64,000 nt of DNA from Candidatus Poribacteria bacterium (GTDB lineage Bacteria; Poribacteria; WGA-4E; WGA-3G). Shown piece by piece: positions 3,923-46,295 of this stretch (positions within the stretch are counted from its first letter, which is position 1; each line of letters starts with the position of its first letter). Location of the stretch: positions 3,104,001 through 3,168,000 of the forward strand of contig OZ240248.1 of the NCBI GenBank assembly GCA_965198235.1, written 5' to 3'. A program made the position numbers and the translations under genes. The notes beneath the pieces were generated by a model. That model was not told the origin of the DNA, did not search any database, and saw only the letters and a list, made by a program, of their open reading frames with translations.

Positions 3923-4059
3923 ATTTTAATTTATGGTCCTCTGAGCGATGCCTCCGTTGTTGGCATCGAATGTAAAATTGTTAAGAAACCTTTGATAATC
4001 TAAAGTCGGGTTTTTAACGATTGGAAGACTGCGCGGAACGTTTTTCTAACTATAGAAAT

Positions 4060-4133
4060 CTGGGCGTTGCTCCAAATGTAAAGCAAAGACAAATTATGCC
4101 ATTTAAGGAAACCTAATTTCATTCCGCAACGGT
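4060..4133. repeat. 74-bp dispersed repeat module; exact inverted copy at 7421-7494, interrupted copy at about 11001-11125
   Basis: ctgggcgttgctccaaatgtaaagc...cattccgcaacggt is the reverse complement of 7421-7494. Confidence 0.9.
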
Positions 4134-4218
4134 GGAAGTTGTGTCAACTGCTCCAGGTGCTGAAAGGAATTCCTTTGAAGTTCTCCAGCGGAGAGCCATG
4201 TCTATAGAGAAGTGCAGC

Positions 4219-5085
4219 TCAGGAGTACATAGTTAAAAAAGCCGCCTCTACAATCTCTGCAGTCGTTTGCTGGGCTTGCTGGGAATTCGTCCGTTCATCT
4301 GCTGGAGTATCCATGTGAACCGTAAGCCAAAGCAAGTACTCAATATTTCCGATGTCCTTGTGGATCGGTGAATAGGTCAGTCCTCTCACTGTGGCTCCGA
4401 GTTTTTCCGTGACGAAAGCACTGAGGTTATCTATCGTCTGGATATGTACCTGTTTGTCAGACACGATTCCACCTTTTTTCACATGTTCCTTTCCTGCTTC
4501 AAATTGCGGTTTGAGCAGTGCGATGATGTCGTAATCCGTTTCTACGCGCCCTTCCTGTTGTGTTATAAGTTTGATGACACTCGGCAGTACCGTCCTCAAA
4601 GAGATAAAAGAGACATCGATCACAGCGATGGAGGCACAGTCTTCCGTGTCATTCAACACCGATGTTTTTAGAAGTGCTGGCGTTAGGTGTCGGATGTTCG
4701 TTTTCTCAATCGGTTGCACTTGTGGATGCGTCCGAAGTTTCCACGCCAGTTGTCCATAACCGACATCGATGGCATAGACGAATTTCGCACCGTGCTGGAG
4801 GAGGCAGTCTGTGAACCCGCCTGTTGACGCACCAACATCAAGCGCAACCCGATTTTGGACGTTTATATCAAAGGTGTGGAACACCTTTTCTAACTTGAGC
4901 CCGCCTCGGCTGACATATTTTTGTTGCTGCTGCACGACCACCTTGGCATCGGAGGGGATACGCTGCCCTGGCTTAATTCTGGAGTTCCCGTTAACAGTTA
5001 CCGCACCCGCAAGAATGAGCCGTTTCGCCTGTTCCCGACTCTCTACCAAGTCGTGCTCTACCAGAAAGGTGTCTATCCGTTGCAT
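4219..5085 (-). CDS. tlyA: TlyA family rRNA 2'-O-methyltransferase
   Basis: S4-like N-terminus; YVSRGGLKL, LDVGASTGGFTDCLLQ, DVSFISL and KPQFE motifs; follows dxs. Confidence 0.95.
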   Translation of the reverse strand: MQRIDTFLVEHDLVESREQAKRLILAGAVTVNGNSRIKPGQRIPSDAKVVVQQQQKYVSRGGLKLEKVFHTFDINVQNRVALDVGASTGGFTDCLLQHGAKFVYAIDVGYGQLAWKLRTHPQVQPIEKTNIRHLTPALLKTSVLNDTEDCASIAVIDVSFISLRTVLPSVIKLITQQEGRVETDYDIIALLKPQFEAGKEHVKKGGIVSDKQVHIQTIDNLSAFVTEKLGATVRGLTYSPIHKDIGNIEYLLWLTVHMDTPADERTNSQQAQQTTAEIVEAAFLTMYS

Positions 5086-5369
5086 TTTTTTAACGATTGG
5101 CCTCTGCGCATCGTTCCACTACGTTCCACGATGGTTTCCGGCGAAGGTCCATGGGGTTGGTAACATGAAATCGATTTTCAGATTTTTTAACGATTGGCCA
5201 TTGCACATCGTTTCTCTATAGAGATTGTTTCGCAGTGAGAACCCTAAGAGTCGAGGGAAACACCCCAGCAAAAACACCCCTCCCACAGTTCAGTTCTCGT
5301 TGAAATTGACCAAAAACCTGCCTGAAACGTAGTGGAAGGCAGATCGAGGGCCAATTATTTAAAAACCAA

Positions 5370-7220
5370 TTATTTAAAAGCCTGAGCTGTGCGAACAACC
5401 GCATCGGCATCGCACTGACATAAGGCATAGAGATGCGGGACATCACCGTGTTCAATAAATTCATCTGGAATGCCGAGATTTCTGATCTGCACATCTTTGA
5501 TACCTGCCGCGGCGATCGCTTCCAAAACTGCACTACCGAAACCGCCCATTATCACGCCATCTTCAATCGTAATTACCTTACCGATCCGTTCCGCAAGCGG
5601 TAGAATCGTTTCAGTGTCCAGCGGCTTGACAAATCGTGCGTTAATAACCGCCGCTGAGATTCCAGAATCGGCTAACGTTTGTGCAGCTTCAAGCGCAGGA
5701 TAGACGCGATTGCCGATGGCAATCACGAGCACATCCTCACCCTCTCTAACGATTTCACTTTTTCCAATCGGTAGTGCCTGCGGTTCCGCTGCTATTTTCA
5801 CACCGACACCGGTGCCGCGCGGGTAACGGAACGCAATGGGACCCTCTTGATACGCCACGGCTGTCTTCACCATAGATTGTAGTTCGTTCTCGTCTTTGGG
5901 TGCCATGACGACCATGTTTGGAATAGAGCGGAGAAATGCCAAATCGAAAACGCCGTGATGCGTTGGACCATCCGCCCCGACAAGCCCGCTTCTGTCCAAT
6001 GCGAAAATAACCGGAAGGTTTTGGATACACACGTCGTGTAACACTTGGTCGTAACTTCGCTGGAGGAAGGTGGAATAGATAGCGGCAACGGGACGCATTC
6101 CTTGGGTAGCAAGTCCACCCGCAAACGTAACGGCGCACTGCTCTGCCAAGCCGATATCGAAGCATCGACTCGGAAATGCGCTGGCAAATTTATCGAGCCC
6201 TGTACCACCGGGCATCGCTGCCGTCACACCGACGATTCGTGCATCACGTTTCGCTAATTCAATCAACGTTCGGCTGAATACTTCCGTATAGGCGGGTGCT
6301 TCAGGTTTCGGTTTGGTTGTCTTTCCTGTTTTCAGATTGAACGGACCACTGACACTATAGAACCCGACGGGATCTTCTTCTGCTGGCGTATAGCCGCGAC
6401 CCTTTTCGGTTACGACATGCAGTAAAATAGGACCCGTGAGACTGCGGATGCCCGTCAAAACCGGGATCAATGCCTCTAAATCGTTACCATCGAGCGGACC
6501 GAAATAGCGGAATCCGAATTCCTCAAACAGAGTACCCGGTTTCAAGGATGCTTCAATCTTCCTTGCTATCTGCTTGGCATCTTCTGAAATCAAGTTCATC
6601 AACCCTTTCGCACCAGAGCGGAGGAAGTTGTACTGTGGTGAACTCGTGAGCTTGTGAAAATGTTTAGAGAACGCGCCGACAGTCGCTGAAATGGACATGT
6701 TGTTGTCGTTGAGAATGATGGTCATATCGTTTCTAAAGTCACCGGCGGCGTTCAACGCTTCAAATGCCATTCCACCTGTTAACCCGCCGTCTCCGATGAC
6801 AGCGACGACTTTGTAATGTTCATTGATGAGATCTCTGGCAGTGGCGACCCCTAATGCCGCGGCAATAGAAGTACTGGAGTGTCCCGCACCAAAGACATCA
6901 TATTCACTCTCGGCTCTGCTGAGGAACCCGCTGATACCACCACTTTGTCGGAGGGTTGGGAACGATTCCCGTCTTCCGGTGAGCAGTTTATGCGGATACG
7001 CCTGATGCCCGATGTCCCAGATGACTTTGTCGCGCGGTGTATCATATACTTTGTGCAACGCGATTGCGAGTTCGACCGTCCCGAAGTTCGGCGCGAAATG
7101 CCCTGGATGCTCAGAGAGCACTGCCAATAGATAGGCGCGCATCTCATCAGCGAGTACTTTGAGTTCATCGAGCTCAAGTTTTTTCAAATCTGCCGGGTTG
7201 TTAATTGTTTCTAAGAACAT
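5370..7220 (-). CDS. dxs: 1-deoxy-D-xylulose-5-phosphate synthase
   Basis: WDIGHQAYPHK, GHSSTSI, GDGGLTGGMAFEALN, YSTFLQRSYDQ and DGPTHHG motifs. Confidence 0.98.
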   Translation of the reverse strand: MFLETINNPADLKKLELDELKVLADEMRAYLLAVLSEHPGHFAPNFGTVELAIALHKVYDTPRDKVIWDIGHQAYPHKLLTGRRESFPTLRQSGGISGFLSRAESEYDVFGAGHSSTSIAAALGVATARDLINEHYKVVAVIGDGGLTGGMAFEALNAAGDFRNDMTIILNDNNMSISATVGAFSKHFHKLTSSPQYNFLRSGAKGLMNLISEDAKQIARKIEASLKPGTLFEEFGFRYFGPLDGNDLEALIPVLTGIRSLTGPILLHVVTEKGRGYTPAEEDPVGFYSVSGPFNLKTGKTTKPKPEAPAYTEVFSRTLIELAKRDARIVGVTAAMPGGTGLDKFASAFPSRCFDIGLAEQCAVTFAGGLATQGMRPVAAIYSTFLQRSYDQVLHDVCIQNLPVIFALDRSGLVGADGPTHHGVFDLAFLRSIPNMVVMAPKDENELQSMVKTAVAYQEGPIAFRYPRGTGVGVKIAAEPQALPIGKSEIVREGEDVLVIAIGNRVYPALEAAQTLADSGISAAVINARFVKPLDTETILPLAERIGKVITIEDGVIMGGFGSAVLEAIAAAGIKDVQIRNLGIPDEFIEHGDVPHLYALCQCDADAVVRTAQAFK

Positions 7221-7504
7221 ATTTTTAACTATGTGCTTCCGGTCGGCGTTTCCGTTGTCAACGCCGGTATAAAATTGGTTAAAAAAACAGGTTTTAGGTT
7301 TGAAAAATTTTTACGATTTTCTAACGACAGCATCCTCGGCATCGTTCCACTTCGTTTCACGATGTATCTGGTAAACTCCAACCCACTCTAGGAGTTCAAA
7401 AGGTTCTGACTTCACCAGAGACCGTTGCGGAATGAAATTAGGTTTCCTTAAATGGCATAATTTGTCTTTGCTTTACATTTGGAGCAACGCCCAGGAGTAA
7501 TAAA

Positions 7505-7690
7505 TTAAAAATCTGTTTCGAGAACGGTTTCTACCCGCTGTTCAGCGTTTTCGAGCATCTGCCTGCATGATGAAATTAAACCGATGCCTTCTTCAAAGAG
7601 TTTGAGAGAATCCTCAAGCGGTAGTTCGTTACCTTCTTCGAGTTGTTCAACAATTTGTGTCAGTTTTCTGAGTTTTTCTTCAAATGTCAT
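7505..7690 (-). CDS. xseB: Exodeoxyribonuclease VII small subunit
   Basis: TFEEKLRKL...LEEG..LPLEDSLKLFEEG; adjacent to xseA. Confidence 0.93.
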   Translation of the reverse strand: MTFEEKLRKLTQIVEQLEEGNELPLEDSLKLFEEGIGLISSCRQMLENAEQRVETVLETDF

Positions 7691-7931
7691 TTTTTTACCT
7701 ATTCGCTCCTGGGCTGCCTTCCCCTATAAACATATCGCCCCGTTGGGGCTAAAATCCAATTGGCTATCGGCGTATTGTCAATCGGAAACCATCATTTTTT
7801 AATTTATGTGCCTCTGAGCATCACTCCACTCCGCTCTGTGTCCCTCCCCAGTAACGGGCGGGGACCCCGGTGTCTGGTCATTTTCAACGGGGCTGAACCC
7901 CGTAGGGGTGAAATGTCTGTAGAGGATACGG

Positions 7932-9161
7932 CTATTCCTCTGACAGGAGTTCCTCAACGCGACATGCCAGATGCCCATCTGCGAGTTGAATCTCAACACT
8001 ATCGCCTATCGACACCTGTTCAGTCGAGGTGAGTACCGCTCCATCTGTTTTCCGACTGATGCTATATCCTCGCTGCAATGTTGCTAACGGACTCAGTGCG
8101 TTTAGGCGTTGCGCAAGTGTGTGAAGATCGCGTTCGCTATCGTTAAGTCGGCGTTCTACAGCCGTCCGGCACGCAGCGTCCAGAGTATCAATTGTTTGGT
8201 AAAGTTGGTAGATAGCGTCCTTACGCCGTGTCGGTGAGAGCCGCGTTTCAAGGTCTTCGAGGCGTGTTTTGTGCGCATCAAATTGTTCATTTATTATTCT
8301 CTGCAGCCCCGCGTCATAGCCATCTAATTGTGCAAGAAGTTCATCCTGATCTGGGACGATATGTTCAATTGCCGCCGAAGGTGTCGGAGCACGGTGATCT
8401 GCCACCATATCGGCGATAGTGAAATCTGTTTCGTGTCCGACAGCAGAGACAACTGGAATCGTGGAAGCGAAAATTGCACGCGCGACGAGTTCTTCGTTAA
8501 ATGCCCAGAGGTCTTCGATTGAACCACCACCCCGACCGACGATTAACACATCTATGTCGTCTCGCTGGTTCATCACTTGTAGTGCATGAGCGATCCCTTC
8601 TGCCGCTCCATCGCCTTGGACAAGTGTTGGATGCAGCAACACTTTGGCTAAGGGATACCGCTTGCGGAGTTGTTGACAGATGTCCTGAAACGCTGCACCT
8701 GTTGCAGACGTAACCACACCGATTTTTTTCGGGAATTCCGGCAACGGTTTTTTGTGATGAACCTCAAATAAGCCCTCTGCGGCGAGTTGCTGTTTCAACT
8801 CTTCAAAGGCTCTCTGCAACGCCCCAATTCCAAGCGGTTCTACCTTATTGGCGTTAATCTGATATTGTCCCCTGGCGGGATAAAGGTTCAGTCGCCCTTG
8901 TACGAGCACTTCCTCGCCGTCCTTCGGCACAAACCGGAGACCGGCGGCACTGCTCCGAAAGATGACAACTTGGATTTGGCTTCTGTCGTCCTTGAGCGTG
9001 AAATAGATATGCCCAGCACTGGATCGACTATAATTCGATACCTGTCCTTGGACCCACACATTTTGTAGGTGTGGCTGCTGTTCTATCAGACTTTTCAGCA
9101 GATCTGTTATTTCACTGACACTACGGACAGTTCTTGTTGGCATGGATATTTCTAATTGCAT
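7932..9161 (-). CDS. xseA: Exodeoxyribonuclease VII large subunit (true start may be 9143)
   Basis: GHIYFTLKD, GRGGGSIEDLWAFNEE, SAVGHETD and TPSAA motifs. Confidence 0.97.
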   Translation of the reverse strand: MQLEISMPTRTVRSVSEITDLLKSLIEQQPHLQNVWVQGQVSNYSRSSAGHIYFTLKDDRSQIQVVIFRSSAAGLRFVPKDGEEVLVQGRLNLYPARGQYQINANKVEPLGIGALQRAFEELKQQLAAEGLFEVHHKKPLPEFPKKIGVVTSATGAAFQDICQQLRKRYPLAKVLLHPTLVQGDGAAEGIAHALQVMNQRDDIDVLIVGRGGGSIEDLWAFNEELVARAIFASTIPVVSAVGHETDFTIADMVADHRAPTPSAAIEHIVPDQDELLAQLDGYDAGLQRIINEQFDAHKTRLEDLETRLSPTRRKDAIYQLYQTIDTLDAACRTAVERRLNDSERDLHTLAQRLNALSPLATLQRGYSISRKTDGAVLTSTEQVSIGDSVEIQLADGHLACRVEELLSEE

Positions 9162-9273
9162 ATCTGTTTAAATAGCCATCGGCTCTCGGGTCGCTTCGCT
9201 TTCGGCAGTCGGCTATCACTAAGAGAACCTTTTCACTGACCGCTGACAGAGAACCGATTACTGATGACTCTTC

Positions 9274-9320
9274 TGTAAGAGCGAGTGTTTTTGCTTGGGT
9301 GTTTCCCTCAGGCTCGCGAT
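9274..9320. repeat. GTAG-type REP hairpin carrying a nested 'tgtttttgcttgggtgtttccc' module; near-identical direct copy at 10194-10240
   Basis: Direct comparison of the two copies. The empty version tgtaggagcgagctgtgctcgcgat is at 10276-10300. Confidence 0.85.
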
Positions 9321-9356
9321 CTTGCTGATAACTGATAACTGACAACTGACTGCTGA

Positions 9357-10133
9357 TTAATACTGGTGCTGGATGGGCACAATACTCACTGCCAGCCCTG
9401 TTTGTTCGTCAAGTTCTATCTCGGCACCGCAGAGTTTGACATTCCCTTTGGCGACAGTAAAACGGGTGGGCATCATCGTCAAAAACCGTTTAAGTGAAAA
9501 ATCTATCTGCGTACCGATGACTGAATCATAAGGTCCCGTCATACCGACATCTGTAATGTAGGCGGTCCCTTGTGGAAGGACGCGCGCATCCGCTGTCTGA
9601 ACGTGCGTATGTGTGCCGAGCACCGCTCCTATCCTGCCGTCTGCGTGCCAGCCCATCGCGATTTTTTCAGAGGTCGCCTCTGCATGAAAATCGAGGAGGA
9701 TATAGGGTGTCACCGCTTTCACTTCAGGTAAAATCGAATTGAGTGCGTGAAACGGATTGGTGTAAGGACTCATGAAAATCTGTCCGGCGAGATTGATGAC
9801 ACCGAGTTGAGTTTGCCCGTCATCGGATGCAACAATGGTTACACCGCGCCCAGCGACATCGGTGGGATAATTCGCAGGTCGTATCAGTTGCGGTGTTGTA
9901 TCTATAAAGCTGAAAATCTCTCTATTATCCCAGACATGGTTTCCGGTTGTAATCGCGGAAATCCCGGAAGCCAGAAGTTGGTCAACGGTCTCAAACGTTA
10001 ACCCTTTCCCACCGGCTGTATTCTCTCCGTTTGCAACGATGAAGTCGTATTTGTGCCGGTGTTCTTCCAAAAACTTGATTGTTGCTGCTCTGCCTGGCTT
10101 TCCAACTATATCTCCGATAAACAGTATTCTCAT
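9357..10133 (-). CDS. YmdB-like (TIGR00282) metallophosphoesterase
   Basis: GDIVGKPGR, NGEN, GNHVWD, DFHAEATSEK, GTHTHV and TDVGMTG motifs. Confidence 0.95.
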   Translation of the reverse strand: MRILFIGDIVGKPGRAATIKFLEEHRHKYDFIVANGENTAGGKGLTFETVDQLLASGISAITTGNHVWDNREIFSFIDTTPQLIRPANYPTDVAGRGVTIVASDDGQTQLGVINLAGQIFMSPYTNPFHALNSILPEVKAVTPYILLDFHAEATSEKIAMGWHADGRIGAVLGTHTHVQTADARVLPQGTAYITDVGMTGPYDSVIGTQIDFSLKRFLTMMPTRFTVAKGNVKLCGAEIELDEQTGLAVSIVPIQHQY

Positions 10134-10300
10134 TTTCCTCCTATCACTTTCTGCGTAATATTGCTATTTCGTCCCTCAACGGTCCTCTTCTTCTGTAGGA
10201 GCGAGTGTTTTTGCTTGGGTGTTTCCCTCAGGCTCGCGATCTTGCTGACAACTGACCCGCTGACCCCCCTTCTTCTGTAGGAGCGAGCTGTGCTCGCGAT

Positions 10301-10822: not shown

Positions 10823-11124
10823 TCTTTAATTTATTGCTTTTAGTCTGCCCTCCATTTCATTACGGGCAGGTTTTCGGTGCAGTCAATATCCAAACTTAAA
10901 TAGATGCAGGTTTTTAGAGGAGTAGTTGTAGGTATTGGGTGCTCCTATCCCCTTAAAAAACCGTAGATATCCTCAATCGCGTCGGAATTCACCAGATACC
11001 ACCGTGAAATGAAATTAGGTTTCCTTAAATGGCATAATTTTGCTTCGCAGTGTCCCGCAGGTTTCCTATAGAGGAAACTTGCGCAGAATGCTTTACATTT
11101 GGAACGGTGACCAGAGTTAATAGT

Positions 11125-12168
11125 TTAAAATACCTCAATGTGTGCGGTATCTTCTCCCATTACTTCTCCGATAACAGCCGCCTCTGGACAATCAGCCGCA
11201 TGGAGTTCCGCTATCGCCGCGTCGGCGTTCTCTGCGGAAAGTGAAAACAGCAGACCGCCAGACGTTTCCGCCTCCATCAAAATATGATGCATCGCGTCGC
11301 TATCGGTGTGGAAGGTAACCTTATCTGCGAGGAACGTCATATTCGCAAGGTAGGCTTGCGTGTAGGTGTCCTGTGCAACGAGTGCGGGAGCATCGGCAAA
11401 GTAAGGCACAGCACTGCTATCGATCTTTAGGCGAACATCGTTGCCCGCTGCCATTTCCGACGCATGTCCCAACAAGCCGTATCCTGTGACATCTGTACAC
11501 GCACTGGCACCGTACTTCAGCATTACTGCTGATGCAGAGGCATTGAGTCGGGTCATCGATTCGACGAGTTGCGGTAAGATGGCATCGCTGATTTTATCAA
11601 ATTTCAGTCCTGTGGTGAGGATACCGATACCGAGGTTTTTGGTAAGAATCAGCACTTCACCGGGACGCGCACCGTAGTTCTTGACGAATTTCTCTGGATG
11701 CACGATACCCGTTACAGAGAGTCCGTACATCAGTTCTGGGGAATCGACCGTATGTCCACCGACGAGTGCCGCACCCGCCTCAATAGCCTTTTCGGTGCCA
11801 CCTTCGACAATATCGCCGAGGATGGATAGATCCAAGTCAGCCTTGGGCCAGCAGGTGATATTCAATGCCGTTTTCGGAACGCCGCCCATACTGTAGACAT
11901 CACTCAGTGAATTCGTCGCGGCGATCGCACCGAAGGTATATGGATCATCCACGATAGGCGTGAAGTAGTCCACTGTGTTAACGAGAGCGAGTTCGTCAGA
12001 AATGCGGTAGATTCCAGCGTCATCGGAGGTTTCAGTGCCGACAAGTAGGTTCGGATCCGTGGATTTCGGGATTTTACCTAAAATGTGCGCAAGCTCACCC
12101 GGAGCGAGTTTTGATGCTCACCCGGCACATTTGACGGTCGCTGTGAGTCGGATTTTCTCTTGTGTCAT
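11125..12168 (-). CDS. selD: Selenide, water dikinase (selenophosphate synthetase), selenocysteine-containing
   Basis: ATG at 12168 reads MTQEKIRLTATVKCAG-UGA-ASKLAPGEL...DDAGIY...TVDYFTPIVDDP, in frame with ORF 11125..11973. The UGA (12118-12120) sits at the conserved active-site Cys/Sec position. Confidence 0.93.
12087..12117 (-). promoter_or_regulatory. Candidate bacterial SECIS hairpin immediately 3' of the Sec codon
   Basis: The mRNA after UGA reads gcaucaaaacucgcuccgggugagcuugc; cucgc/gugag can form a stem closing a G-containing loop. Confidence 0.55.
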
Positions 12169-12328
12169 AATAGACACCTCGCATTGTCCCGCAAGCCTCT
12201 ATAGGCTTGCGCAGAGCAGTTTTCAGTTTGCCTTGCAGTAAGAGTTTTGGAGTCATTAGCCTGCTTCGTAGTGAGAACAAAGCAGTTTTTTTGCTGATGG
12301 CTGACCGCTGACTGCTGATTGCTAACTG

Positions 12329-13225
12329 TTATTGCAGATCGGACAAAACAGATTTCACGTACGCCACACTCCGACCATCTTGGTGGAACTGGTCGCCGTC
12401 GCGTATACCTTCGATTGCCAGATACCCATCGTAGTTGACATCTAATAACGCCGCAATCGCGAAACGGTAGTCGATTTCACCGTCAGGCAACGTGGCTTGG
12501 ACGTAGATAGCCGTTTCCAGATCCGGGATATGCACGCGATAGAGGCTCTTGCAATGCCAATAGTTGACGTGCTGCGCGAGCGCAGCGATCGCATCTTCGC
12601 ACGATTCCTCTGGAGTATCGTAAGTCCAATAGATGTTGCCTAAGTCGGGATTCACACCGACGTTCGGGGCATCGATTAATTCTAACAGATGCAGTGCCGA
12701 CCAGCTGTTATCCGCAATCGAGTTTTGATGGATTTCTATGGAGATCTCTACCCCTTGATCTGCGGCGATACCGGCGACTTTGCTCACGGCTTTTGCGGTG
12801 CGTTCATAATCCACTGCGCTCGCGAGGCGACTTGACCCTTGCGAGACGGATTCGCCGCGATACGTGCCTTTACCGTTCGGATCGCGGGGTGGCGTGGTAA
12901 CCGTGGAATTGACAACGCCCGCGCCAATCTTCGCAGCGAAATGAACAGCGTTTATCATACTTTGCTTGTTAGCAGCAGCGACACGCGGATGTGCGGCACC
13001 GCCACCGCCGCGAATCGCAACGCATGGAATACCAGCGTCTTCAAGCTCCGAACGGAGCGTCGCAGCTTCAGCGTCAGGAAGGTTGATCGCGGGAAGTTCA
13101 ATTCCATCGAATCCAATCGCTTTGGCATGATCCAAAAACCGTCGTCGGTCTGCCGCATCGGTGGGTAACCCGTCACCGTTGTAAGGGTACGATGCACATC
13201 GTCTAAAAGCGTACGCAATCTTCAT
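12329..13225 (-). CDS. Sugar phosphate isomerase/epimerase (xylose isomerase-like TIM barrel)
   Basis: GFDGIE, IEIH, NPDLGN, HCKS and YDGYLAIE motifs. Confidence 0.85.
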   Translation of the reverse strand: MKIAYAFRRCASYPYNGDGLPTDAADRRRFLDHAKAIGFDGIELPAINLPDAEAATLRSELEDAGIPCVAIRGGGGAAHPRVAAANKQSMINAVHFAAKIGAGVVNSTVTTPPRDPNGKGTYRGESVSQGSSRLASAVDYERTAKAVSKVAGIAADQGVEISIEIHQNSIADNSWSALHLLELIDAPNVGVNPDLGNIYWTYDTPEESCEDAIAALAQHVNYWHCKSLYRVHIPDLETAIYVQATLPDGEIDYRFAIAALLDVNYDGYLAIEGIRDGDQFHQDGRSVAYVKSVLSDLQ

Positions 13226-14056: not shown

Positions 14057-14345
14057 GTTTTCAGTTATCGGTTATGGGTTATCAGTTAAGAGATTATCGC
14101 CGAACAGAAGTATCTTTCAACTGAAAACTGACAAGTCAGGACTTACGCAAATTGAGCACACGGTGGTAGATTTTGCCTTTTAAACCCCCTAAATCCCTCT
14201 TATCAGAGGGACTTCTGAACGCGCTGCGTAAATCCTACAAGTAACAACCCCGTAGAATGAATCTCTGAATCCCGACATCTGACTGCTGATAACTGACTGC
14301 TATTCTGCTGACAACTGACAACTGATAACTGATAACCGACAACTA
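14057..14345. repeat. Mosaic intergenic repeat bounded by inverted 7-mer tandem arrays (TTATCAG/CTGATAA type)
   Basis: ttcagttatcggttatgggttatcagtt on the left and actgactgc...actgacaactgataactgataaccgac on the right. Similar arrays occur at about 9170-9356, 12290-12328, 21860-21900, 22655-22715, 36295-36480 and 42180-42280. Confidence 0.8.
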
Positions 14346-14360
14346 ACACAAGGAAATATT

Positions 14361-17551: not shown

Positions 17552-18513
17552 TATGTGTTTCTCCTGTTCCGTAAGATGCCTGAAAACAGGTGTTAAGGTT
17601 TTAACTCTGGGGTTGCATCGTGTGTTAAGTATATCCTAAAATCGCGGTTTTGTCAAGGATTTTTCAATGTTGCATAGGGGCATTCAGTTCTTCTGTAGGA
17701 GGGGGAAACACCCAAGCAAAAACACTCCGAATCCAGACTTCTATCCCTCCGATAGGCACGATTCACGGAGGCTTCACGGAGGGTTTTCTAAGGTCAGGTG
17801 GGACGTGGGTTCGTGAAACGCAACATGTCCTTTCTCCGTGAAAATACGAAATGATAAATTAGAATTAACGAAATATCTCATACAAATAGTGCCGTAGGGA
17901 CGATGTGTTTATAGAATATTTTGTCTGAATCGCGGATTGTCGCGGATGACACGGATGACGCGGATTTTTTATTGTGGGGGGTCGTTGTCTGAATCAGGAT
18001 TTTCAGGATTAAAGGATTTGCAGGAGAGTCGCCAATAGCCCTCTTTGCTCCAGCAGAGCAATATTGTTTCGCAGTGAGAATAGCAAAGGATACCCCGTAA
18101 TACCCGCAAGCCGAAGAAAGTGCTATGTGGCTCGTTTACCCTATGTGTAATGGTTGTTGATGGTTGTTTTCGTCTGAATCGCGGATTGTCGCGGATGACA
18201 CGGATGACGCGGATTGGAAGAGGTTTTAGTATGTAGATTGTCGTAGCCCCGTAGGGGCGGTATCTGTGTAGAAACTCGCCACCCACACATCTTAGCCCCA
18301 GCGGGGGTTTTTGCTTGGGTGTTTCTTCAAAATATGTGCATAGAACCGCTTTCCAATGGCTGGTGATCCAACGCGGCAAGACAAACATTGAGCATATTTT
18401 CCACCTCTTCCCGCGTATCATCACGCAACGGACCCGAAAGTGCCGCACAATAAAGACTTGGTTTCATGAAGGGTCTGCAACGTTCAAAGCTCTCTAATCC
18501 TGCAAATCCTGAT

Positions 18514-21653: not shown

Positions 21654-22873
21654 ATTTTATTTCACGGTCAGCCTTGTTAAGTTGATAATGTGGGTTCGGA
21701 AAAATCGTGTTTTCCATTATATGCTCTCTGCGTCTCAAGTGCAAGACTTTTTGTAGTAGAGAAACACGACGCATACAGTAGGTACGGTTTCCCAACTGGG
21801 ATTCTACCTGTTCTTAGAAGGCGCACTGAAGTCTTTCCGAACACGTGCTGCTGCCTAATGGTTGATTACCGACTGCTGATTGCTGACGGCTGACCGCTAA
21901 TTCGCGATAGGTGCGGTTTCCCAACCGCACCGGGTAACAACGAACCCATTGCATTTCCATCATTTCGCTGGCGAGGTTTCTAACCTCGCCTCTTGAGAGT
22001 GCCCAAGTAATTCTTAAATCTACTATAAATTAAGTCTAACAAACCTATGGGAATCCTATATCAGATGCCAAACCCCTAAAATCCGCGTCATCTGTGTAAT
22101 CCGTGTAATCTGCGATTCAGACAAGAAGGTTCTCTCATCCTGTAAAGATCGAAGAAGCCCGTGAATCCCAGTTCAGACAATTAACACCGCACATTACCCA
22201 ATTATACTAAGCTTTGGACAATTTTCAGCATTTGTATTACAGATGCGTTGTATCCTTTCAGGACACATGGCACTCCGCTGGAGTGCGAGAGGGTGGATAT
22301 ACCGTTTTCTATAGACATAGCAAGCCGAAGAAAGTGCGGTATTTTTCTCAGAGTTCCGTGAGTGTCTGGAACACGCGAAAAAATATACACGCCTTTGAAA
22401 ACTCAATTCATATGCAACACGAATTGTCCAAACTTTAGCAATTATAGTAAAACCCACAATTATTTTCACATTGCAGAGAGGCGGGGTTTGCAACCCCGCT
22501 CCACAATCTGTAGATTTTGCAATAAATAAAAAATAAATTTGCATCCTTATATTATATTATAGTATTATATATAATGTAATTCTAAATTAAGTATATAGGT
22601 CGGATTGAACACCATGAAATCCAACTGACGAACTATCCTGCTAACGGAAACCTATTACTGATGACTGATTGCTGACAGCCGATGGCTAATATTCTGATTG
22701 CTGACTGCTGATGGCTATCTCAATAAAATGTTACACTTTCCGCCAAATTATTTTTTTCCGTAGCAGAGGATCGCAGAAAAATGCCTCTGAGCCCTTACAG
22801 TTACTGGCTTCTCTGCCGATAACCGTTGTACACCAAATATTACACTGGTGTAACATTTTTAAGGAGAATTTTC

Positions 22874-35373: not shown

Positions 35374-36279
35374 TTGGCAGTTACAATGAAAGAACTCCTT
35401 GAATGTGGAGTTCACTTCGGACATCAAACCCGTCGTTGGAATCCGAAGATGGCAGAGTACATCTTCGCTGAACGAAACGGGATTTATATTATTGATTTGC
35501 AAAAGACGCTACGAATGCTTGAAACCGCCGTTGATTTCGTTGCAGAAATCGCGTCGAAGGGTGGTGGCGTATTATTTGTCGGCACGAAACGGCAATCCCA
35601 AGAAGCCGTGCGAGGCGAGGCGGTTCGGTCTAGCATGTACCACGTAAATCATCGGTGGCTCGGCGGTATGCTGACGAATTTCCAAACCATCCGTCGGAGC
35701 GTCAACCGGTTGGATAAACTGGATGCTGATGAAGTCAACGGGATTTTTGATCAGATGCCCAAAAAAGAAGTAATGCGTCTGAGACGTGAGAAAGGCAAAC
35801 TCGACAACAACCTTAGTGGAGTTAGAGAGATGAAGAAGCTCCCTGAAGTCGTCATTGTTACCGACACGCGGAAAGAGCATACAGCTATCGCAGAGGCAAA
35901 CAAACTCGGCATTCCAATCATCGCTATCGTTGATACCAACTGCGATCCTGATCCGATTGACTTGCCGGTTCCGGGTAACGATGACGCTATCCGTTCGATT
36001 CGTCTCATCTGCACTGTCTTAGCCGATGCAGTCATTAATGGCAGAGGAGATGCCTTGGAAGGCGCAGAGGTCGCAACGGAAACAGAGCAGCCCAAAAAGG
36101 CTGTGGCACAGGTAGATGCTATAATTGAAGTGGAAAAGCACGAGGAAGAAAGTGCCGCGATTCTGGAACAAGCGCAACTGTCCGCAGAGCCAGAGGCGAT
36201 TGGCGATGGGGAACAGCGTCAGACACGGGCGCCACGTCAACGACGGAGGGGAAGGGCACCTCGGCGACAGCCTCAATAA
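35374..36279 (+). CDS. rpsB: 30S ribosomal protein S2
   Basis: [30 protein letters not shown] and PGNDDAIRS motifs; TTG start after AGGAGG. Confidence 0.98.
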
Positions 36280-36501
36280 ATTTCTATGAAGCAAAGATAG
36301 CCGTCAGCAGTCAGGGCGTTCGCTACCCTCACTCTCAGCGGTCAGACTTCGGCAATCAGCCTTCGGTAAGAGAATCTGGGGACAGGTAGGTAGTATCTGT
36401 CTCCCACAACTGCTGAAGGTTTCCGATACGCTGATTGCTGAAAGTGAACGAAGTGAGCGTGCTGACAGCCGATAGCTAAAGATAAAATAAGAGGAGGATA
36501 A

Positions 36502-37095
36502 ATGGCAATTACAGCAAAGCTTGTTAGCGACCTCCGTTCGCGCACGGGGGCAGGGATTATGGACTGCAAAAAGGCGCTAACAGAGACGAACGGAAATATT
36601 GACGAAGCGATTCAGAAATTACGGGAGCAGGGATTGAAAGCTTCCGAGATCAAAGGCGGTAGACCGGCAGAAGAAGGATTGATTGTTTCCTATATCCATC
36701 CCGGTAGCCGTGTCGGTACGTTAGTCGAACTGAATTGCGAAACCGATTTCGTCGCACGAACGGAGCCATTCCAAAAGTTGGCGAAAGAGATCGCGATGCA
36801 GGTCGCAGCCGCAAAACCGAAATATATTAAATCGGAAGATGTACCTGCCGAAGATCTTGAAGCAGAGAAAACGATTCTGAAAGCACAAGCCGAGCAGGAG
36901 GGTAAACCTGCCCACATCGCTGAACGGATTGTTGAAGGCCGAATCTCTAAATACTATACGGAGACCTGTCTTCTACAGCAGCCTTATATCCGAGATTCAG
37001 ACAAAACCGTCGATACCCTCGTAAAGGACGCAATCGCCCAATTGGGTGAGAACATTGTCGTCAAACGTTTTGTGCTCTATGTACTTGGACAGTAG
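36502..37095 (+). CDS. tsf: Elongation factor Ts (short form)
   Basis: LRSRTGAGIMDCKKAL and ELNCETDFVAR motifs. Confidence 0.98.
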   Translation: MAITAKLVSDLRSRTGAGIMDCKKALTETNGNIDEAIQKLREQGLKASEIKGGRPAEEGLIVSYIHPGSRVGTLVELNCETDFVARTEPFQKLAKEIAMQVAAAKPKYIKSEDVPAEDLEAEKTILKAQAEQEGKPAHIAERIVEGRISKYYTETCLLQQPYIRDSDKTVDTLVKDAIAQLGENIVVKRFVLYVLGQ

Positions 37096-37483
37096 AGGTC
37101 CAGGAGCATTTATGGTGAATTGTCAAAATATATAGAATTTCAGTCGGTAGGGGTCTAACATATACTTCTCCTCCGCTGGCGAGGTTTCATGAGGTTTCAG
37201 AAAATATTTCATTAATTCTATCCCAAAAAATCACTGTAGGGGGGTTTTGCTTGGGGGTTTCCCCAAGTCTTGTGCCTGCCCACACATTACTATGGTTTGG
37301 TGGCTTGTGTATGGATTACACTCATAGTTTCGAGTTCGAGGCTACGAGTTGACTGAAGGATACTAACTGAAAAGGTAAAAGCACTTCTTCCATCGCGACC
37401 CTTGCAGCCAACTGTTATGGGACCCTCGTGGGTTCTTTGTATTGTTGCATAGGCGTTCGCGATGTCTCATAGGGAAAAATCAG

Positions 37484-38071
37484 ATGCAACAACAAATTCT
37501 TCAACAGACTGAGTCCCGGATGAAGAAGACAGTCGAAGCAACAGTAGCGAAATTGTCGCATGTGCAAACAGGGCGTGCTACACCGGCACTCTTGGATCAG
37601 GTTAGCGTTACTTATTACGGTAGCAAAAGTCCGCTGAGTCAGGTCGGCACGATTACCACCCCTGAGCCCCGGCTGCTTGTCATTCAACCTTGGGACAAAA
37701 CGCTAATTACAGAAATTGAGAAAGCAATCGCTCACTCGGATTTGGGACTCTCAACGAGCAATGACGGAAACGTTATCCGAATCCAAGTTCCCGAACTCAC
37801 ATTGGAGCGCAGGACCGAGCTAACGAAGGTCGTACGTAAACTTGCCGAAGAGGGTAAGGTCGCAATTCGGAATATCCGCCGCGATGCCAACGAAGCCGTT
37901 AAAAAAGGTGACGGTAGCGATACGAGTGGCAGCGGTAAAAGCAGAGGTCGTGGTGGTGATAAGAAGCGTGGAAAAGCGAGCGCGGATCCCGTTCAGCAGC
38001 TTACGGATAGGTACATCGACCAGATTAACGAGTTGACGGAGGCGAAAGAATCCGATTTATTAGAAACTTAG
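37484..38071 (+). CDS. frr: Ribosome recycling factor
   Basis: TGRATPALLD, QPWD, PELTLERR and AIRNIRRDAN motifs. Confidence 0.95.
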   Translation: MQQQILQQTESRMKKTVEATVAKLSHVQTGRATPALLDQVSVTYYGSKSPLSQVGTITTPEPRLLVIQPWDKTLITEIEKAIAHSDLGLSTSNDGNVIRIQVPELTLERRTELTKVVRKLAEEGKVAIRNIRRDANEAVKKGDGSDTSGSGKSRGRGGDKKRGKASADPVQQLTDRYIDQINELTEAKESDLLET

Positions 38072-38226
38072 ATTGCGGTGGCTATAATGATACGCGTGAT
38101 CATTCCTTGTGCGCGGTGTAGGGGACCTTCTTAAAAAAAGCGTATAAGTTCCCAGTCGCGTCGGAATTAATCGGAAACCATCATGTTTCGTAGAAATATG
38201 ATGCGCGGAGGCCCCATAGTTAAAAA

Positions 38227-39057
38227 ATGTTTTGGCGGCGAGCCTTGAGTGTGGTTGTGCTGGTACCGTTAGTCCTCCTAATTGTTTATACGGGGGATTG
38301 GCTCTACCTGATACTTGTATCTGTCGCCGTGGTGATGATGCAAGTCGAGTACTGTCGTTTAGCACAGCACTTCACGGAAAAATTGAATCCAGTGATACCG
38401 GCACTCTTGACAGGTGTGTTCTGTTTATTCGCGTATTTTTTGCCTGCACTTACACAGACAGCGTCTGCCTCGACGGTAATATTCAGTTACTTTACCTTCG
38501 TATTCATTTATATTTTCGCAGAAAGTATTTTTAGGGCGAAGGTCGCCGGTGAATTGCTCGCTGTCACGCTGAAGCTAACCGGTATTTTAACGATCGGTTG
38601 GGCATTAGGCTACCATCTCATCTTGCTCCGAAATGCGGAACCAATCGGTAGGCAACTTATTTTCCTATTGGCTGGAATCATTTGGTGTAGCGATACCGGC
38701 GCGTATCTTGTTGGCAGAGCGTTCGGTAAACACAAACTCGGCACGCCAGTCAGTCCACGAAAGACGATTGAGGGGACTATTGGTGGATTGGTTGTAGGCA
38801 CTTTGACGAGTTTCCTGCTGAGTGCAATCCTTCTCAAAGGAACGCTCTCTTGGGGGAACGCCGTCTTTATTGGACTCCTACTGAGCGTTTTGGGACAACT
38901 TGGAGATCTCAGTGCCTCTCTGATGAAGCGAACTGCTGGTGTTAAGGACTCCGGACACGTTATCCCTGGACACGGTGGATTCATTGATAGGTGCGACAGC
39001 CTAATTTTTAGCACACCCGTGCTCTATTACTATCTGGCATTGACGGGACACTTTTAA
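38227..39057 (+). CDS. cdsA: Phosphatidate cytidylyltransferase
   Basis: DTGAY, SPRKTIEG and KDSGHVIPGHGGFIDRCDS motifs. Confidence 0.95.
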   Translation: MFWRRALSVVVLVPLVLLIVYTGDWLYLILVSVAVVMMQVEYCRLAQHFTEKLNPVIPALLTGVFCLFAYFLPALTQTASASTVIFSYFTFVFIYIFAESIFRAKVAGELLAVTLKLTGILTIGWALGYHLILLRNAEPIGRQLIFLLAGIIWCSDTGAYLVGRAFGKHKLGTPVSPRKTIEGTIGGLVVGTLTSFLLSAILLKGTLSWGNAVFIGLLLSVLGQLGDLSASLMKRTAGVKDSGHVIPGHGGFIDRCDSLIFSTPVLYYYLALTGHF

Positions 39058-39237
39058 ACTATTAACTCTGGGCGTTGTTCCACTTCGTTTCACAACGGTT
39101 TTTGGTGAAGTCTAACCGTCTCTGGATGATGAGCGGATAAAAAGTCTTAAAAACTGTACATTTCCCCGGTCGCGTTGGAATTAACCAGACACCATCGTGG
39201 AACGATGTCCAGGGACCCATAGTTAAAAGTTAAAAAA
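39052..39237. mobile_element. MITE-like intergenic element with imperfect inverted termini ending in TTAAAA
   Basis: The left end ttttaaactattaactctgggcgttgttccacttcgtttcac overlaps the cdsA stop. The right end accatcgtggaacgatgtccagggacccatagttaaaa lies just before the dxr ATG. Related ends occur at more than ten gene boundaries. Confidence 0.65.
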
Positions 39238-40398
39238 ATGAAGCACATCGTCATACTTGGTAGCACGGGTTCTATTGGGAAGAATACCCTCAGCGTTGTT
39301 GAAACGCATGCTGACGAATTTAAGGTAGTCGGTCTCGCAGCGAACCGGGATGTTGATACCCTTGAACAACAGATTCGGCGGTATCGTCCTGCGTTGGTGG
39401 CTTTAAATGAACCCAAAGCAGCGGCACAACTCCGAGAACGAATCCGAGATCTCAACTGCACACAAGTGCTCGCTGGCACCGAGGGGCTTGAAGCCGTAGC
39501 GACGATGCCGCAAGCGTCCCAAGTCCTGGATGGAATGGGCGGGAGTGCAGGTTTGCTACCGACTTTGGCAGCGATTAACGCCGGCAAGGACATCGCTTTT
39601 GTAAATAAAGAGGTAATGGTGATGGCAGGACCTCTTGTTAATGCGGCTGTCCAAAAGAACGGTGTTAATTTGATACCGATAGATGGTGAAATGAGTGCCA
39701 TTTTCCAATGCTTGGAGGGCACACGCGACCAGCAGACAGATATCCATCGACTCCTGATTACTGCGTCAGGAGGACCGTTCCGAGAGGTGCCGAAAGAGAC
39801 ACTCTATTCCGTCACACCACAGCAAGCACTCCGGCACCCAAATTGGAAGATGGGACAGAAAATAACAATCGACTCCGCAACAATGATGAACAAAGGACTG
39901 GAGGTCATTGAGGCGAAATGGTTGTTTGATATAGAACTCTCGAAGATTGACATCGTCGTTCATCCGGAGAGTATTGTCCATTCTATGGTGGAATGGACAG
40001 ATGGCTCCACACTCGCACAACTGGGACCCACAGATATGCGTATTATGATCCAATACGCTTTAACCTATCCCCGTAGACTCTCAACACCAGTGCCACGTTT
40101 GGATTTGATGGAGGCACGCACACTACACTTTGAACCGGTTGACTTTGAGAAATTTCCATGCCTCTCACTGGCGTATACCGCCGCAGAAGTCGGGGGCACA
40201 CTCCCTGTAGTGCTCAGTAGCGCAGATGAGGTGGTCGTAGCGGCTTTTCTTGATACATGCATCGGATTTATGGATATTCCCGCGATCCTCGCGCGTGTGA
40301 TGGATGAGCATGAGGTGATCACTGACCCAACACTTTCGGATATCCTTGAGGTTGACCGGTGGGCAAAATCAACAGCACATTCAATAATAAAAAAATAA
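39238..40398 (+). CDS. dxr: 1-deoxy-D-xylulose-5-phosphate reductoisomerase
   Basis: LGSTGSIG, NKE, TASGGPFR, HPNWKMGQKITIDSATMMNKGLEVIEA motifs. Confidence 0.96.
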   Translation: MKHIVILGSTGSIGKNTLSVVETHADEFKVVGLAANRDVDTLEQQIRRYRPALVALNEPKAAAQLRERIRDLNCTQVLAGTEGLEAVATMPQASQVLDGMGGSAGLLPTLAAINAGKDIAFVNKEVMVMAGPLVNAAVQKNGVNLIPIDGEMSAIFQCLEGTRDQQTDIHRLLITASGGPFREVPKETLYSVTPQQALRHPNWKMGQKITIDSATMMNKGLEVIEAKWLFDIELSKIDIVVHPESIVHSMVEWTDGSTLAQLGPTDMRIMIQYALTYPRRLSTPVPRLDLMEARTLHFEPVDFEKFPCLSLAYTAAEVGGTLPVVLSSADEVVVAAFLDTCIGFMDIPAILARVMDEHEVITDPTLSDILEVDRWAKSTAHSIIKK

Positions 40399-40491
40399 CA
40401 CACGATCTAATAAACTTTGTAGGGGGTTTTTGCTTGGGTATTTTCCCAGGTCTTGTGCCTGCCCATAATAAAAAAAGAGGTAATAAACATC

Positions 40492-42180: not shown

Positions 42181-42429
42181 CGGTCAGCTGTCAGTTGTAG
42201 GAGCGAGTTGTGCTCGCGATTGTAGAGATTTTCGTTTAGAAGCAACCTCTTGTGACTGACTACTAACAATCGGTAACCGCTTCCTCCTATGGCGTAGAAA
42301 AATCGGACATCTCGTGAGGCTTCCGGTACGAAATCTTCTTAATTGTTCATGTTCCCATTCACGCTGGAATTGACCAAACACCATCGTGGAACGTAGTGGA
42401 ACGATGCTCAGATTCCTATAGTTTAAAAT

Positions 42430-43149
42430 ATGGATAGAGACAGCCTCAAAAAAGATTATGTAGAACTTGTTGCAAGTGTGAGGGAATACGTGGAAGAACA
42501 ACTTCAACTCGGTTTCATAGAATCAGAACTAAGCGAACCTGAGCAGGAATCGCCCTACGCGAACCTTGATCTACCCGCGCTGGCGACCGATGCCGCGGGT
42601 TGCACCAAATGTCCGTTGCACGAAACACGGAATAGTGTCGTTTTTGGTGTCGGCAACACGAACGCTGACCTTATGTTCATCGGTGAAGCGCCGGGGGCTG
42701 ATGAGGATCAGCAGGGCGAACCTTTTGTCGGTAGAGCCGGTCAATTGCTGACACAAATCATTGAGGCAGGGATGAAACTCAAGCGCGAGGATGTCTATAT
42801 CACCAATGTGCTTAAGTGTCGTCCCCCGGGCAACAGAAACCCTGAATCCGATGAGGTCGAAACCTGTAGCCCTTATTTGGTGCGTCAGATAGAACTCATT
42901 CAGCCGAAGGTGATTGTGGCACTCGGAAGTTTTGCTGCACAGATGATGCTTGGGACAAAAATCGGTATTACAAAACTCCGCGGGGAGTTCCATGCGTGTA
43001 ATGTAGCAGGACTCCGCGTCCTTCCACATAGGAAACCACCAATGGTCATGCCGACATTTCACCCGGCGTATCTGCTCAGAAACCCGAATGCCAAACGTGA
43101 CGTGTGGGAAGACGTTAAAAAGGTGCTTGCTTTTTTAGCAGATTTTTAA
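42430..43149 (+). CDS. Uracil-DNA glycosylase family 4
   Basis: [28 protein letters not shown] and FHPAYLLR motifs. Confidence 0.95.
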
Positions 43150-43393
43150 ATAATTGGCCTCCGCGCTGTGCTCCATTACATTCCGCACAGGTCTCTGATT
43201 TGTTCAGCTACGTTTCACGATGGTTTATAGTCAATTTTGCGGCGTACTCGCCCATAAGCGATCTGCTTCAAGGGAGACTGAACCCCGTAGGGTGTTTTTG
43301 CTTGGGGTTTTTGATAGGGTGTTTCTGCGGATTTTTGTGGATTTCTTCAAAATCTCTGTAGGGGAACAACGCCCAGATTCAATAGTTTAAAAT

Positions 43394-45988: not shown

Positions 45989-46169
45989 ACATATCACCCT
46001 TACGGGGTTTTAATCTGAATAAAGAGAAATGTTTAAACATCATTCTTTTTAAGCACTCTAACGGAGTGCCATATTTATCTAACCTTCCGAGACTAAAACC
46101 CAATCCTTTAGGTTTGGGATACAGTCTCGCCGTTGTGAATTAGACCAGGGGTCTCTGTTAAAAAAAGAC

Positions 46170-46198
46170 TTGACTTTCGGTGAAAAATGTGGTATAAT
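46170..46198 (+). promoter_or_regulatory. sigma70 promoter inside the IS, upstream of tnpB
   Basis: TTGACT-17 nt-TATAAT with an extended -10 TG. Confidence 0.75.
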
Positions 46199-46206
46199 TA
46201 AAGTAT

Positions 46207-46281
46207 CAAGTTGGCAGACATGAACAGCGTAACCGCAAGGTTACGTGTCTGCCTACCCACTGTTCAGGGGTTAAGAACTTG
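46207..46281 (+). ncRNA. Candidate structured 5' leader RNA (pseudoknotted)
   Basis: Perfect pairings: 46207-12/46276-81, 46213-20/46246-53, 46228-34/46239-45 (GCAA tetraloop) and 46221-27/46260-66. Confidence 0.55.
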
Positions 46282-46295
46282 AAACTTGAGATACC

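Follow-up and report, generated by a model that had tools for sequence, protein, structure and literature searches.

What sets the start and stop codons of core genes at the very end of a dispersed repeat? The question is raised by a stretch of 64,000 nucleotides (nt) from a Candidatus Poribacteria bacterium (assembly GCA_965198235.1, contig OZ240248.1, forward-strand positions 3,104,001 to 3,168,000), referred to here as the window, in which an imperfect motif recurs at the boundaries of housekeeping genes. A sequence-only reading of the window had taken this motif for the end of a transposable element of the miniature inverted-repeat kind (MITE) that targets TTAA or TA and has rewritten translation-initiation regions across core operons. 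We find that this motif, which we call the arm, forms the unit of a Candidatus Poribacteria repeat family that is both non-coding and non-autonomous, and that its placement at gene boundaries is far more exact than intergenic location alone would yield. Positions are those of the window unless another contig or genome is named.

We built an arm profile of 69 positions from 12 copies in the window and iterated it with nhmmer. At a genome threshold of E ≤ 0.01, the 5.17-Mb genome contains 475 arms of ~69 nt, 20 of them in the window, confirming that the recurring terminal motif is real. From inside to outside, an arm consists of a conserved inner block (…GGAATTAACCAGAAACC), a hairpin, CCCAG, 4–6 variable bases and the outer end ATAGTTAAAAA(A). 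About 102 arms carry an additional conserved inward extension, and many have an insertion in the loop, either a small GGGGTTTGTAACCCC hairpin or a piece of ~45 nt. Solo arms make up about half of the total. Neighbouring arms face outward in 121 pairs, compared with 31, 21 and 18 for the three other arrangements, and the length of the outward-facing units peaks at 150–160 bp (27 of the 114 pairs of 100–300 bp). The stem and the variable block are usually unlike between the two arms of one unit. The units are terminal inverted repeats around a short non-coding stretch, as in MITEs, despite the large share of solo arms, and inverted doublets are a common arrangement, as in REP and REPIN families. 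Contig C2 (43.9 kb) repeats a stretch of contig C1 (about 796000–811000) with identical element junctions (for example, C2:35270–35506 equals C1:810685–810921), probably as an assembly duplicate or a recent duplication.

Gene starts lie at the arm's outer end with striking precision. Among 439 arms with a complete end, 128 (29%) have the ATG of an open reading frame (ORF) of at least 80 amino acids at an offset of −2 to +2, and 97 of these at exactly 0, whereas such an ATG lies at an offset of 2 or less from 129 of 5,000 random positions (2.6%). When the search is widened to 40 nt, 204 arm ends have such a start, so the 128 at an offset of 2 or less form the larger part. On average, the A of the ATG occupies the place of the arm's last A, the ATG itself is not part of the arm, and the distance from hairpin to ATG is fixed in the 128 genes. 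Stop codons are affected as well. Among the 311 arms with no start within 2 nt, 59 have an end whose TTA (offset −7/−8) gives a converging ORF of 100 codons or more its TAA stop, and many further stops lie a few nucleotides from arm ends. In 22 of 114 full units the two ends fall exactly on a stop and a start, including one that forms the entire 154-nt spacer between rplR and rpsE in a ribosomal-protein operon. The genome scan for enrichment at starts and stops that the sequence-only reading had proposed came out in its favour.

Within the window, positions 3923–7510 hold four minus-strand genes (tamB-like, tlyA, dxs and xseB) and three spacers of ~285–295 nt each that are nearly all arm copies. 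Gene names follow Pfam matches: FtsJ and S4 (tlyA), DXP synthase (dxs), exonuclease VII small and large subunits (xseB and xseA), PRTase (pyrE-like), AIRS (selD-like), CTP_transf_1 (cdsA), DXP reductoisomerase (dxr), UDG (udg) and PriA (priA); the tamB-like gene has a weak match to DUF748. The N-terminal Pfam domains start at residues 1–4, and the named ATGs are therefore true starts. The coordinates agree with the earlier placement of the motif end near the ATGs of the tamB-like gene, tlyA, dxs, the pyrE-like gene, cdsA, dxr, udg and priA, with degenerate arms in the case of the tamB-like gene and dxs, and also with its overlap of the xseB, selD-like, cdsA and udg stops and of the last codons of tlyA and dxs. 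The copies in the window are as follows, with the corresponding state in the nearest species, G001 (~88% nucleotide identity in genes), where it is informative.

2120–2207, minus: arm with a small GGGGTTTGTAACCCC-type hairpin in its loop; in G001 this hairpin stands at the corresponding position with no arm around it.
3923–3993, minus: degenerate arm, its outer end adjoining the start codon (up to 3922) of the tamB-like gene; recognized by alignment with other arms, below the nhmmer threshold.
4042–4133, minus: arm with a ~45-nt loop insertion (nhmmer E = 9.6e-4); 4060–4133 is a 100% identical inverted copy of 7421–7494.
4209–4239, plus: arm-end fragment overlapping the last tlyA codons (4219–4240) and the TGA stop (4219–4221); identified from the inverted repeat and the ORF.
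5086–5147, minus: canonical arm flush with the tlyA ATG (5083–5085; nhmmer E = 3.6e-14); part of alignment A2, described below.
5183–5230, minus: partial arm-end copy in tandem with the arm at 5086; direct-repeat family.
5298–5380, plus: canonical arm (5298–5365; nhmmer E = 1.3e-13) plus a 15-nt tandem end copy, together providing the last two dxs codons and the TAA stop (5370–5372).
7221–7290, minus: degenerate arm with its own hairpin and the end ATAGTTAAAAAT, flush with the dxs ATG (7218–7220); aligned with relatives and grouped with low-copy hairpin variants, below the profile threshold.
7317–7382, minus: canonical arm within the xseB–dxs spacer (nhmmer E = 5.5e-8).
7405–7511, plus: arm with a loop insertion whose end contains the xseB TAA (7505–7507; ORF 7505–7690); nhmmer E = 8.7e-9, Pfam Exonuc_VII_S.
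7796–7889, minus: arm with a loop insertion in the xseA–xseB spacer (nhmmer E = 8.2e-6).
10825–10886, minus: arm abutting the start (10822) of the PRTase (pyrE-like) gene (nhmmer E = 2.5e-9); G001 has a 70-nt heptamer spacer here.
10979–11130, plus: arm split by a loop insertion (10979–11015 and 11073–11130), its end overlapping the TAA of the AIRS (selD-like) gene (11125–11127); profile and Pfam.
38158–38227, plus: arm that shares its last A with the cdsA ATG (ORF 38227–39057); nhmmer E = 2e-6, Pfam.
39052–39228, minus (39052–39116) and plus (39172–39228): inverted arm pair filling the cdsA–dxr spacer; profile and 30-locus comparison. The left arm provides the last three cdsA codons and the TAA (39055–39057), and the right arm is followed by a repeated 9-nt arm-end copy and then the dxr ATG at 39238.
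42362–42428, plus: solo arm with an inward extension from ~42331; a single nucleotide separates its end from the udg ATG (42430); nhmmer E = 2e-15; G001 has other repeats here.
43143–43392, both strands: arm 43143–43203 (minus) containing the udg TAA (43147–43149), and arm end 43357–43392 (plus) abutting the priA ATG (43394); profile.
47572–47657, plus: arm with an insertion in the loop and its end at the start codon of an ORF at 47657 that has no Pfam match at E ≤ 1e-5; profile.
48685–48785, plus: arm with a half-arm in tandem behind it; in G001 there is a single arm, with a stem differing by a compensated pair; profile and G001 comparison.
49313–49394, plus: arm with a small GGGGTTTGTAACCCC hairpin in the loop; G001 has a 17-nt spacer; profile and G001 comparison.

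Some arm ends have a tandem duplicate, as over 15 nt at 5366–5380, 25 nt at 43394–43418 and a half-arm at 48752–48785. The first of these copies is missing in a near-identical contig from run X1 of the RNA data described below, and the dxs C-terminus is different in G001. The second lies in frame and forms the first ~eight codons of priA (MTRFNSLKY); as this copy is common to G001, part of the repeat is translated. The small GGGGTTTGTAACCCC hairpins lie at 2160–2185 and 49335–49352, inside arm loops, while at an orthologous place in G001 (646700–646730) the hairpin stands without a surrounding arm, suggesting nested or modular assembly.

We then examined how the family is distributed among relatives. 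In this genome, dxs has 96% identity to its counterpart in a named Poribacteria metagenome-assembled genome. A covariance model of the arm (R1) was run on 151 sampled genomes of the phylum, with no more than 33 scored candidates counted per genome. R1 matched all 56 genomes of the window's own genus, some with only 1–6 arms. In the sister genus 5 of 38 genomes were matched, each by 1–2 weak matches; it matched none of the 56 sampled genomes from the other 20 genera. Among the genomes sampled, the family is almost confined to one genus of Poribacteria, which are symbionts of sponges. Even within that genus its sites vary: G001 has 3 arms in the 54-kb syntenic stretch, compared with 20 in the window, and its three spacers around tlyA and dxs are filled by other repeats. 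Presence or absence of arms at orthologous sites is a trait shared with MITEs. At the xseB–dxs junction, one relative (L002) has the two genes only 20 nt apart, with AAGGA in the spacer, an arm pair is present in two more, and the others carry unrelated inserts.

The cdsA–dxr junction was compared across 30 loci, comprising this genome (L119) and 29 relatives. The full unit is present in two (L119 and L137), a solo arm in two and an arm with a loop insert in one; three retain only the last ~15 nt of the arm beside the ATG, four have a compact 17-nt spacer, and the remaining loci hold heptamer arrays or other repeats. These states are out of step with the order of dxr identity, indicating repeated gains, losses or exchanges, and the C-terminus of CdsA varies with the junction allele. 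The compact spacers of relatives carry the Shine-Dalgarno (SD)-like sequences AAGGA or GAAAG (L002 at xseB–dxs, L143–L146 at cdsA–dxr). The arm has therefore replaced older initiation regions, which upholds the earlier claim that the element rewrote them.

Other repeats share these spacers. Arrays of 7-nt units (TAACTGA or CTGACNG type) take up many spacers, in the window at 9314–9358, 12283–12341, 14261–14347, 21854–21903 and 22647–22721, and in relatives such arrays, of the kind described by MacGregor 2015 (PMC4679880), occupy the same junctions as arms and finish in A-rich sequence at the ATG. A second repeat family, spread genome-wide with more than 100 copies, has its end ...CCGAACCGCAAGGAAAATTAAAAA directly against ATGs and its AAGGA ~11–12 nt from the start (for example, G000:C1:4846764–4846858); it also lies upstream of dxs in L001, L003 and L006 (~3960–4000). 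Another dispersed repeat (…GTTTTTGCTTGGGTGTTTCCC…), often joined to CAGGTCTTGTGCCTGCCC, is found in spacers adjoining arms, with copies in the window at 9271–9319, 10191–10239, 18291–18339, 37227–37275, 40410–40458 and 43278–43339.

If the arm replaces an initiation region, what does it supply instead? The 16S rRNA of this genome ends in the usual anti-SD tail, and in ordinary genes the distance from the end of an SD-like core to the ATG is 5–9 nt, most often 7 nt (1,063 of 3,176 crudely called genes). None of the 128 start-abutting arms has an SD-like core 5–11 nt from the ATG, but 64 of them have one (CAGGAG or CAGAGG) at 14–15 nt. The earlier remark that these starts have no obvious SD is thus right for normal spacing, while it overlooks the more distant core in half of the arms. 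The core is also unevenly distributed: it is found in 76 of 119 start-abutting arms (64%), compared with 42 of 127 on the stop side and 48 of the 169 remaining arms (Fisher p = 6e-10). Within a single loop type the corresponding figures are 14 of 22, 0 of 16 and 4 of 33, and within single units the SD-like core is on the start-side arm 22 times and on the other arm 8 times. This bias toward the start side points to selection on orientation or subtype, and hence to some use in initiation. It suggests that the arm end has been co-opted as a translation leader, and lends indirect support to the translation enhancer proposed in the sequence-only reading.

The hairpin is conserved in a different way. 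It has a 6-bp stem, free in sequence yet paired, around a conserved 13-nt loop with its own 2-bp inner helix, the commonest loop being GAAACGAAGTGGA. Considering all 412 arms with letters in the stem columns, the stem is perfect in 327 and has one mismatch in 54, with 62 different stem sequences; when stem halves were re-partnered at random, the mean was 72.6 perfect stems and the maximum 91. In alignment A2, made up of 29 arms picked for stem diversity with pairing ignored in the choice, 99.1% of cells are paired, 63 cells have changed on both sides, and 7 of 8 pairs show two-sided changes. None of 500 shuffles matched the observed pairing, and slid controls paired at 14–59%. G:T and A:C exceptions are equally frequent in the stems, so the data fit folding of either strand. 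Minimum-energy folds of the 155-nt units are mostly long hairpins (−34 to −60 kcal/mol) in which the T-run pairs with the A-run at the foot. Although energy prefers this long hairpin to a cloverleaf, pairing between arms is without covariation, and it is the local arm hairpins that covariation backs.

Searches for an RNA family or transcription signals in the arms gave no match. No Rfam family matched the window at gathering score, and none matched 38100–39300, which holds three arms, at E ≤ 1. In a consensus scan of 36000–50000, none of 10 sigma-70-like sites and no intrinsic terminator fell in an arm. The RNA data consist of contigs from four sponge metatranscriptome runs of one study and show neither transcript ends, strand nor level; these contigs extend from genes into arms, and one from X1 spans 7470–9154 across the xseA–xseB arm, with DNA possibly present in the library. 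Contig breaks at arms are uninformative, being expected from repeats in assembly.

From these results we consider it probable that arms spread and turn over in spacers, and that the ends that persist sit at gene boundaries, serving as 5′ leaders or stops. Arms would move and turn over in intergenic spacers, alone or as ~155-bp outward-facing pairs, often replacing the previous spacer together with the last codons of the upstream gene and leaving no clear target duplication. The copies that persist would be those whose outer end falls precisely on a gene boundary. At a start, the A-rich end would become a 5′ leader in place of the normal SD spacer, often with AGGAG 14–15 nt upstream; at a stop, the upstream gene would terminate in the TAA of TTTAAA or in another in-frame stop close by. 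We infer a translation-initiation role for the arm end, and that the hairpin serves propagation of the element itself, through recognition of a folded single strand, rather than translation. It is also possible, although on the whole doubtful, that the arm end is a portable translation-initiation cassette that has replaced the native ribosome-binding site of well over 100 genes (~3–6% of the genome), including dxs, dxr, priA and rpsE. Initiation would in that case rely on an A-rich leader, with the distant AGGAG as a standby site, instead of an SD at normal spacing, and the hairpin just upstream would be a shared handle for a genus-specific factor.

Several observations weigh against arms that spread through spacers and are kept as leaders or stops. 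In 43 of the 128 start-abutting arms there is no SD-like core at all, and where there is one it may not act as an SD because its distance from the ATG is twice the ordinary spacing. The subfamily bias could equally stem from an insertion preference of one arm subtype. A TTAAAAA-type context precedes the ATG of 289 of 3,533 crudely called genes, 99 with an arm and 190 without; the armless contexts belong to the second family (more than 100 copies, end ...CGCAAGGAAAATTAAAAA), to heptamer arrays and to low-copy hairpins of the same layout. An A-rich start context may therefore be general in the organism, with the arm merely sharing in it. Arms that abut a start are preserved no better than the rest. 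As to movement, no direct repeats flank the units and no target duplication was seen in paralogous or orthologous comparisons; all sites examined in G001 carry other repeats or replacements, with no clean insertion; and the ORFs enclosed by arm pairs in this genome are ordinary genes, with no transposase among them. The counts have limits too, as genes were called crudely (the first ATG of ORFs of at least 150 amino acids) and a few arm copies were counted twice where C2 duplicates part of C1.

A classical cut-and-paste MITE would explain part of the same evidence. Here the ~155-bp unit would be moved by the DDE transposase of an insertion sequence located elsewhere or since lost, into TTAA or TA sites; as these are common at stop codons and in A-rich start contexts, they would by themselves account for the placement at gene boundaries. 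The outward inverted ends, the sharp length mode near 155 bp, presence or absence between species, near-restriction to one genus among the 151 genomes with very unequal copy numbers within it, and the predominance of ends reading TTAA are all in keeping with such an element. However, the arm terminus TTA[A/G]AAAA varies with arm orientation (TTAG ~35 times, CTAA twice, most ends being TTAA) and not symmetrically as a target would, so the TTAA end belongs to the arm and not to a duplicated target, and the target site named in the sequence-only reading is not supported. That reading had also called for empty sites in relatives: other alleles do exist at the same junctions, but no clean empty site or target duplication was found among them, and comparisons show replacement instead, as at the end of cdsA, where the arm takes the place of the last native codons. 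The sole paralogous candidate for an empty site among the 114 units was a copy of another repeat family with its middle replaced by the unit. The large share of solo arms makes the family more like REP or BIME elements than a classical MITE, and the mismatch in stem and variable block between the arms of a unit likewise argues against it. We therefore regard this explanation as unlikely. What stands of the MITE-like description is a non-coding, non-autonomous element with inverted ends at gene boundaries; for its target, its duplication and, in this genome, its partner we found no support, and about half of the arms are not in units.

No partner transposase with the same ends, as the earlier reading had expected, came to light in this genome. 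Its multi-copy ORF families are what we take to be TnpB, IS3-like, IS630 and others. The ends of IS630 are unrelated to the arm, and the TnpB/IS605 ends checked differ from it; IS3-like and the remaining families were outside this comparison. A solo TnpB gene beside an arm (46296–47507) has end hairpins of its own. This gene (403 amino acids, a family of ~14 copies; flanks 45990–47560) is inserted between priA and the next gene and is missing at the G001 site, the window being ~1.67 kb longer there. Six genes match the Y1 family (PF01797), three of IS605 type and three solo. A RAYT link was rejected, as the solo Y1 genes are bracketed by a separate hairpin family and five of the six genes have no arm within 1.5 kb. 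The bracketing hairpin of the solo genes (L084–L086; G000:C1 ~3853757, 606918 and 1898775) reads GCACTCC..GGAGTGC and is followed by TATGTCTATAGAAA; its family also occurs in the window at 7720–7760 and 46040–46075. Arm ends presumably resemble the integron core-site pattern. Integron attC sites were set aside, because there is no integron integrase (best TIGR02249 score 46.9 bits, cut-off 265) and the copies are scattered among housekeeping genes.

Two further explanations start from function in the transcript. In one, the arm is a host regulatory leader whose conserved-loop hairpin is the binding site of a genus-specific protein or RNA controlling the translation or stability of hundreds of mRNAs, and which spreads because it is useful, as has been suggested for Neisseria REP2 or the TAACTGA arrays. 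A loop conserved in sequence around a stem conserved in structure only, the constant hairpin–ATG distance in 128 genes, and low-copy unique hairpins of the same layout before other genes (tamB-like and dxs) fit this, and repeats just upstream of starts have precedents in PMC3184786 and PMC4679880. Yet for ~70% of arms the end faces no start, half of the paired ones would put the complementary hairpin into the transcript, the hairpin is no better kept on the start side, and three relatives keep just the last ~15 nt before dxr. In the other genera sampled the family did not turn up, and orthologous genes manage without an arm. As for a known binder, the GGA of the loop recalls CsrA, but no CsrA gene was found in this genome, which is 96% complete, and Rfam offered no match. 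We give this explanation little weight.

In the other, the paired arms would fold together in a polycistronic RNA, bringing stop and ATG to the foot of one long hairpin, which would open as a ribosome terminates there and so expose the A-rich start region. Such translational coupling would suit the 22 full units that run exactly from stop to start, rplR–rpsE included, and the long hairpins with a T-run/A-run foot that dominate the predicted folds. Against it, neither stem nor variable block is kept complementary between the arms of a unit, covariation supports the local hairpins instead of inter-arm pairing, and most start-abutting arms are solo or in other arrangements. We consider it very improbable. 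Spread through spacers, with retention at gene boundaries, is the reading we carry forward.

The family also stands apart from the repeats it most resembles. Like REP, BIME and REPIN elements, arms are short hairpin-centred intergenic units in hundreds of copies, solo or in inverted doublets, forming mosaics and limited to a lineage. They differ in having no 5′ GTAG tag (GTAG is found in some loops only, and the commonest loop is without it), in a longer unit of 69–100 nt, in that the three solo Y1 genes are flanked by the other hairpin family rather than by arms, as would be the case for a REPIN–RAYT system, and in outer ends that lie exactly on start and stop codons. With what we take to be the features of the Correia (Neisseria), ERIC and RUP MITEs they share a ~155-bp palindromic unit with inverted ends that is non-coding, intergenic and variable between relatives, and RNA-library contigs that cover the unit plus neighbouring genes. 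Unlike in those families, no target duplication, related insertion sequence or consensus promoter was found here, and the arms behave as independent units.

Closer in position are the Neisseria REP2 and Borrelia IR repeats which, according to PMC3184786, are stem-loop repeats immediately upstream of ORFs that supply the translation start region. Arms likewise lie directly upstream of ORFs, as the 128 of 439 ends within 2 nt of a start attest. According to the same source, REP2 has ~26 copies, no inverted ends, its own promoter and a normally placed ribosome-binding site, and includes the ATG; the arm family by comparison has 475 copies, many inverted pairs, no promoter found and the ATG outside the repeat, while its SD-like core lies 14–15 nt from the ATG and its end also supplies stops. 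TAACTGA heptamer arrays, according to MacGregor 2015 (PMC4679880), lie a few nucleotides upstream of starts, in ribosomal-protein operons too, where there are few canonical ribosome-binding sites. Such arrays are present in this genome and alternate with arms at the same junctions, but they are simple tandem heptamers without a conserved-loop hairpin or an inverted-pair unit. The arm family combines traits of REP/BIME/REPIN elements, MITEs, REP2/Borrelia IR repeats and TAACTGA arrays but does not qualify as a member of any of them, and among the matches listed in a literature search of main texts, supplements excluded, there was no paper on such repeats in Poribacteria.

These findings describe selfish intergenic repeats woven into core gene expression, with hundreds of genes in an uncultivated symbiont lineage that start or stop inside a repeat, including those of ribosomal-protein and isoprenoid operons. 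In practical terms for metagenome-assembled genomes, arms mark true starts, explain variable C-termini and break short-read assemblies. If the arm end does drive initiation, the genome would offer more than 100 natural experiments on SD-independent or long-spaced translation initiation.

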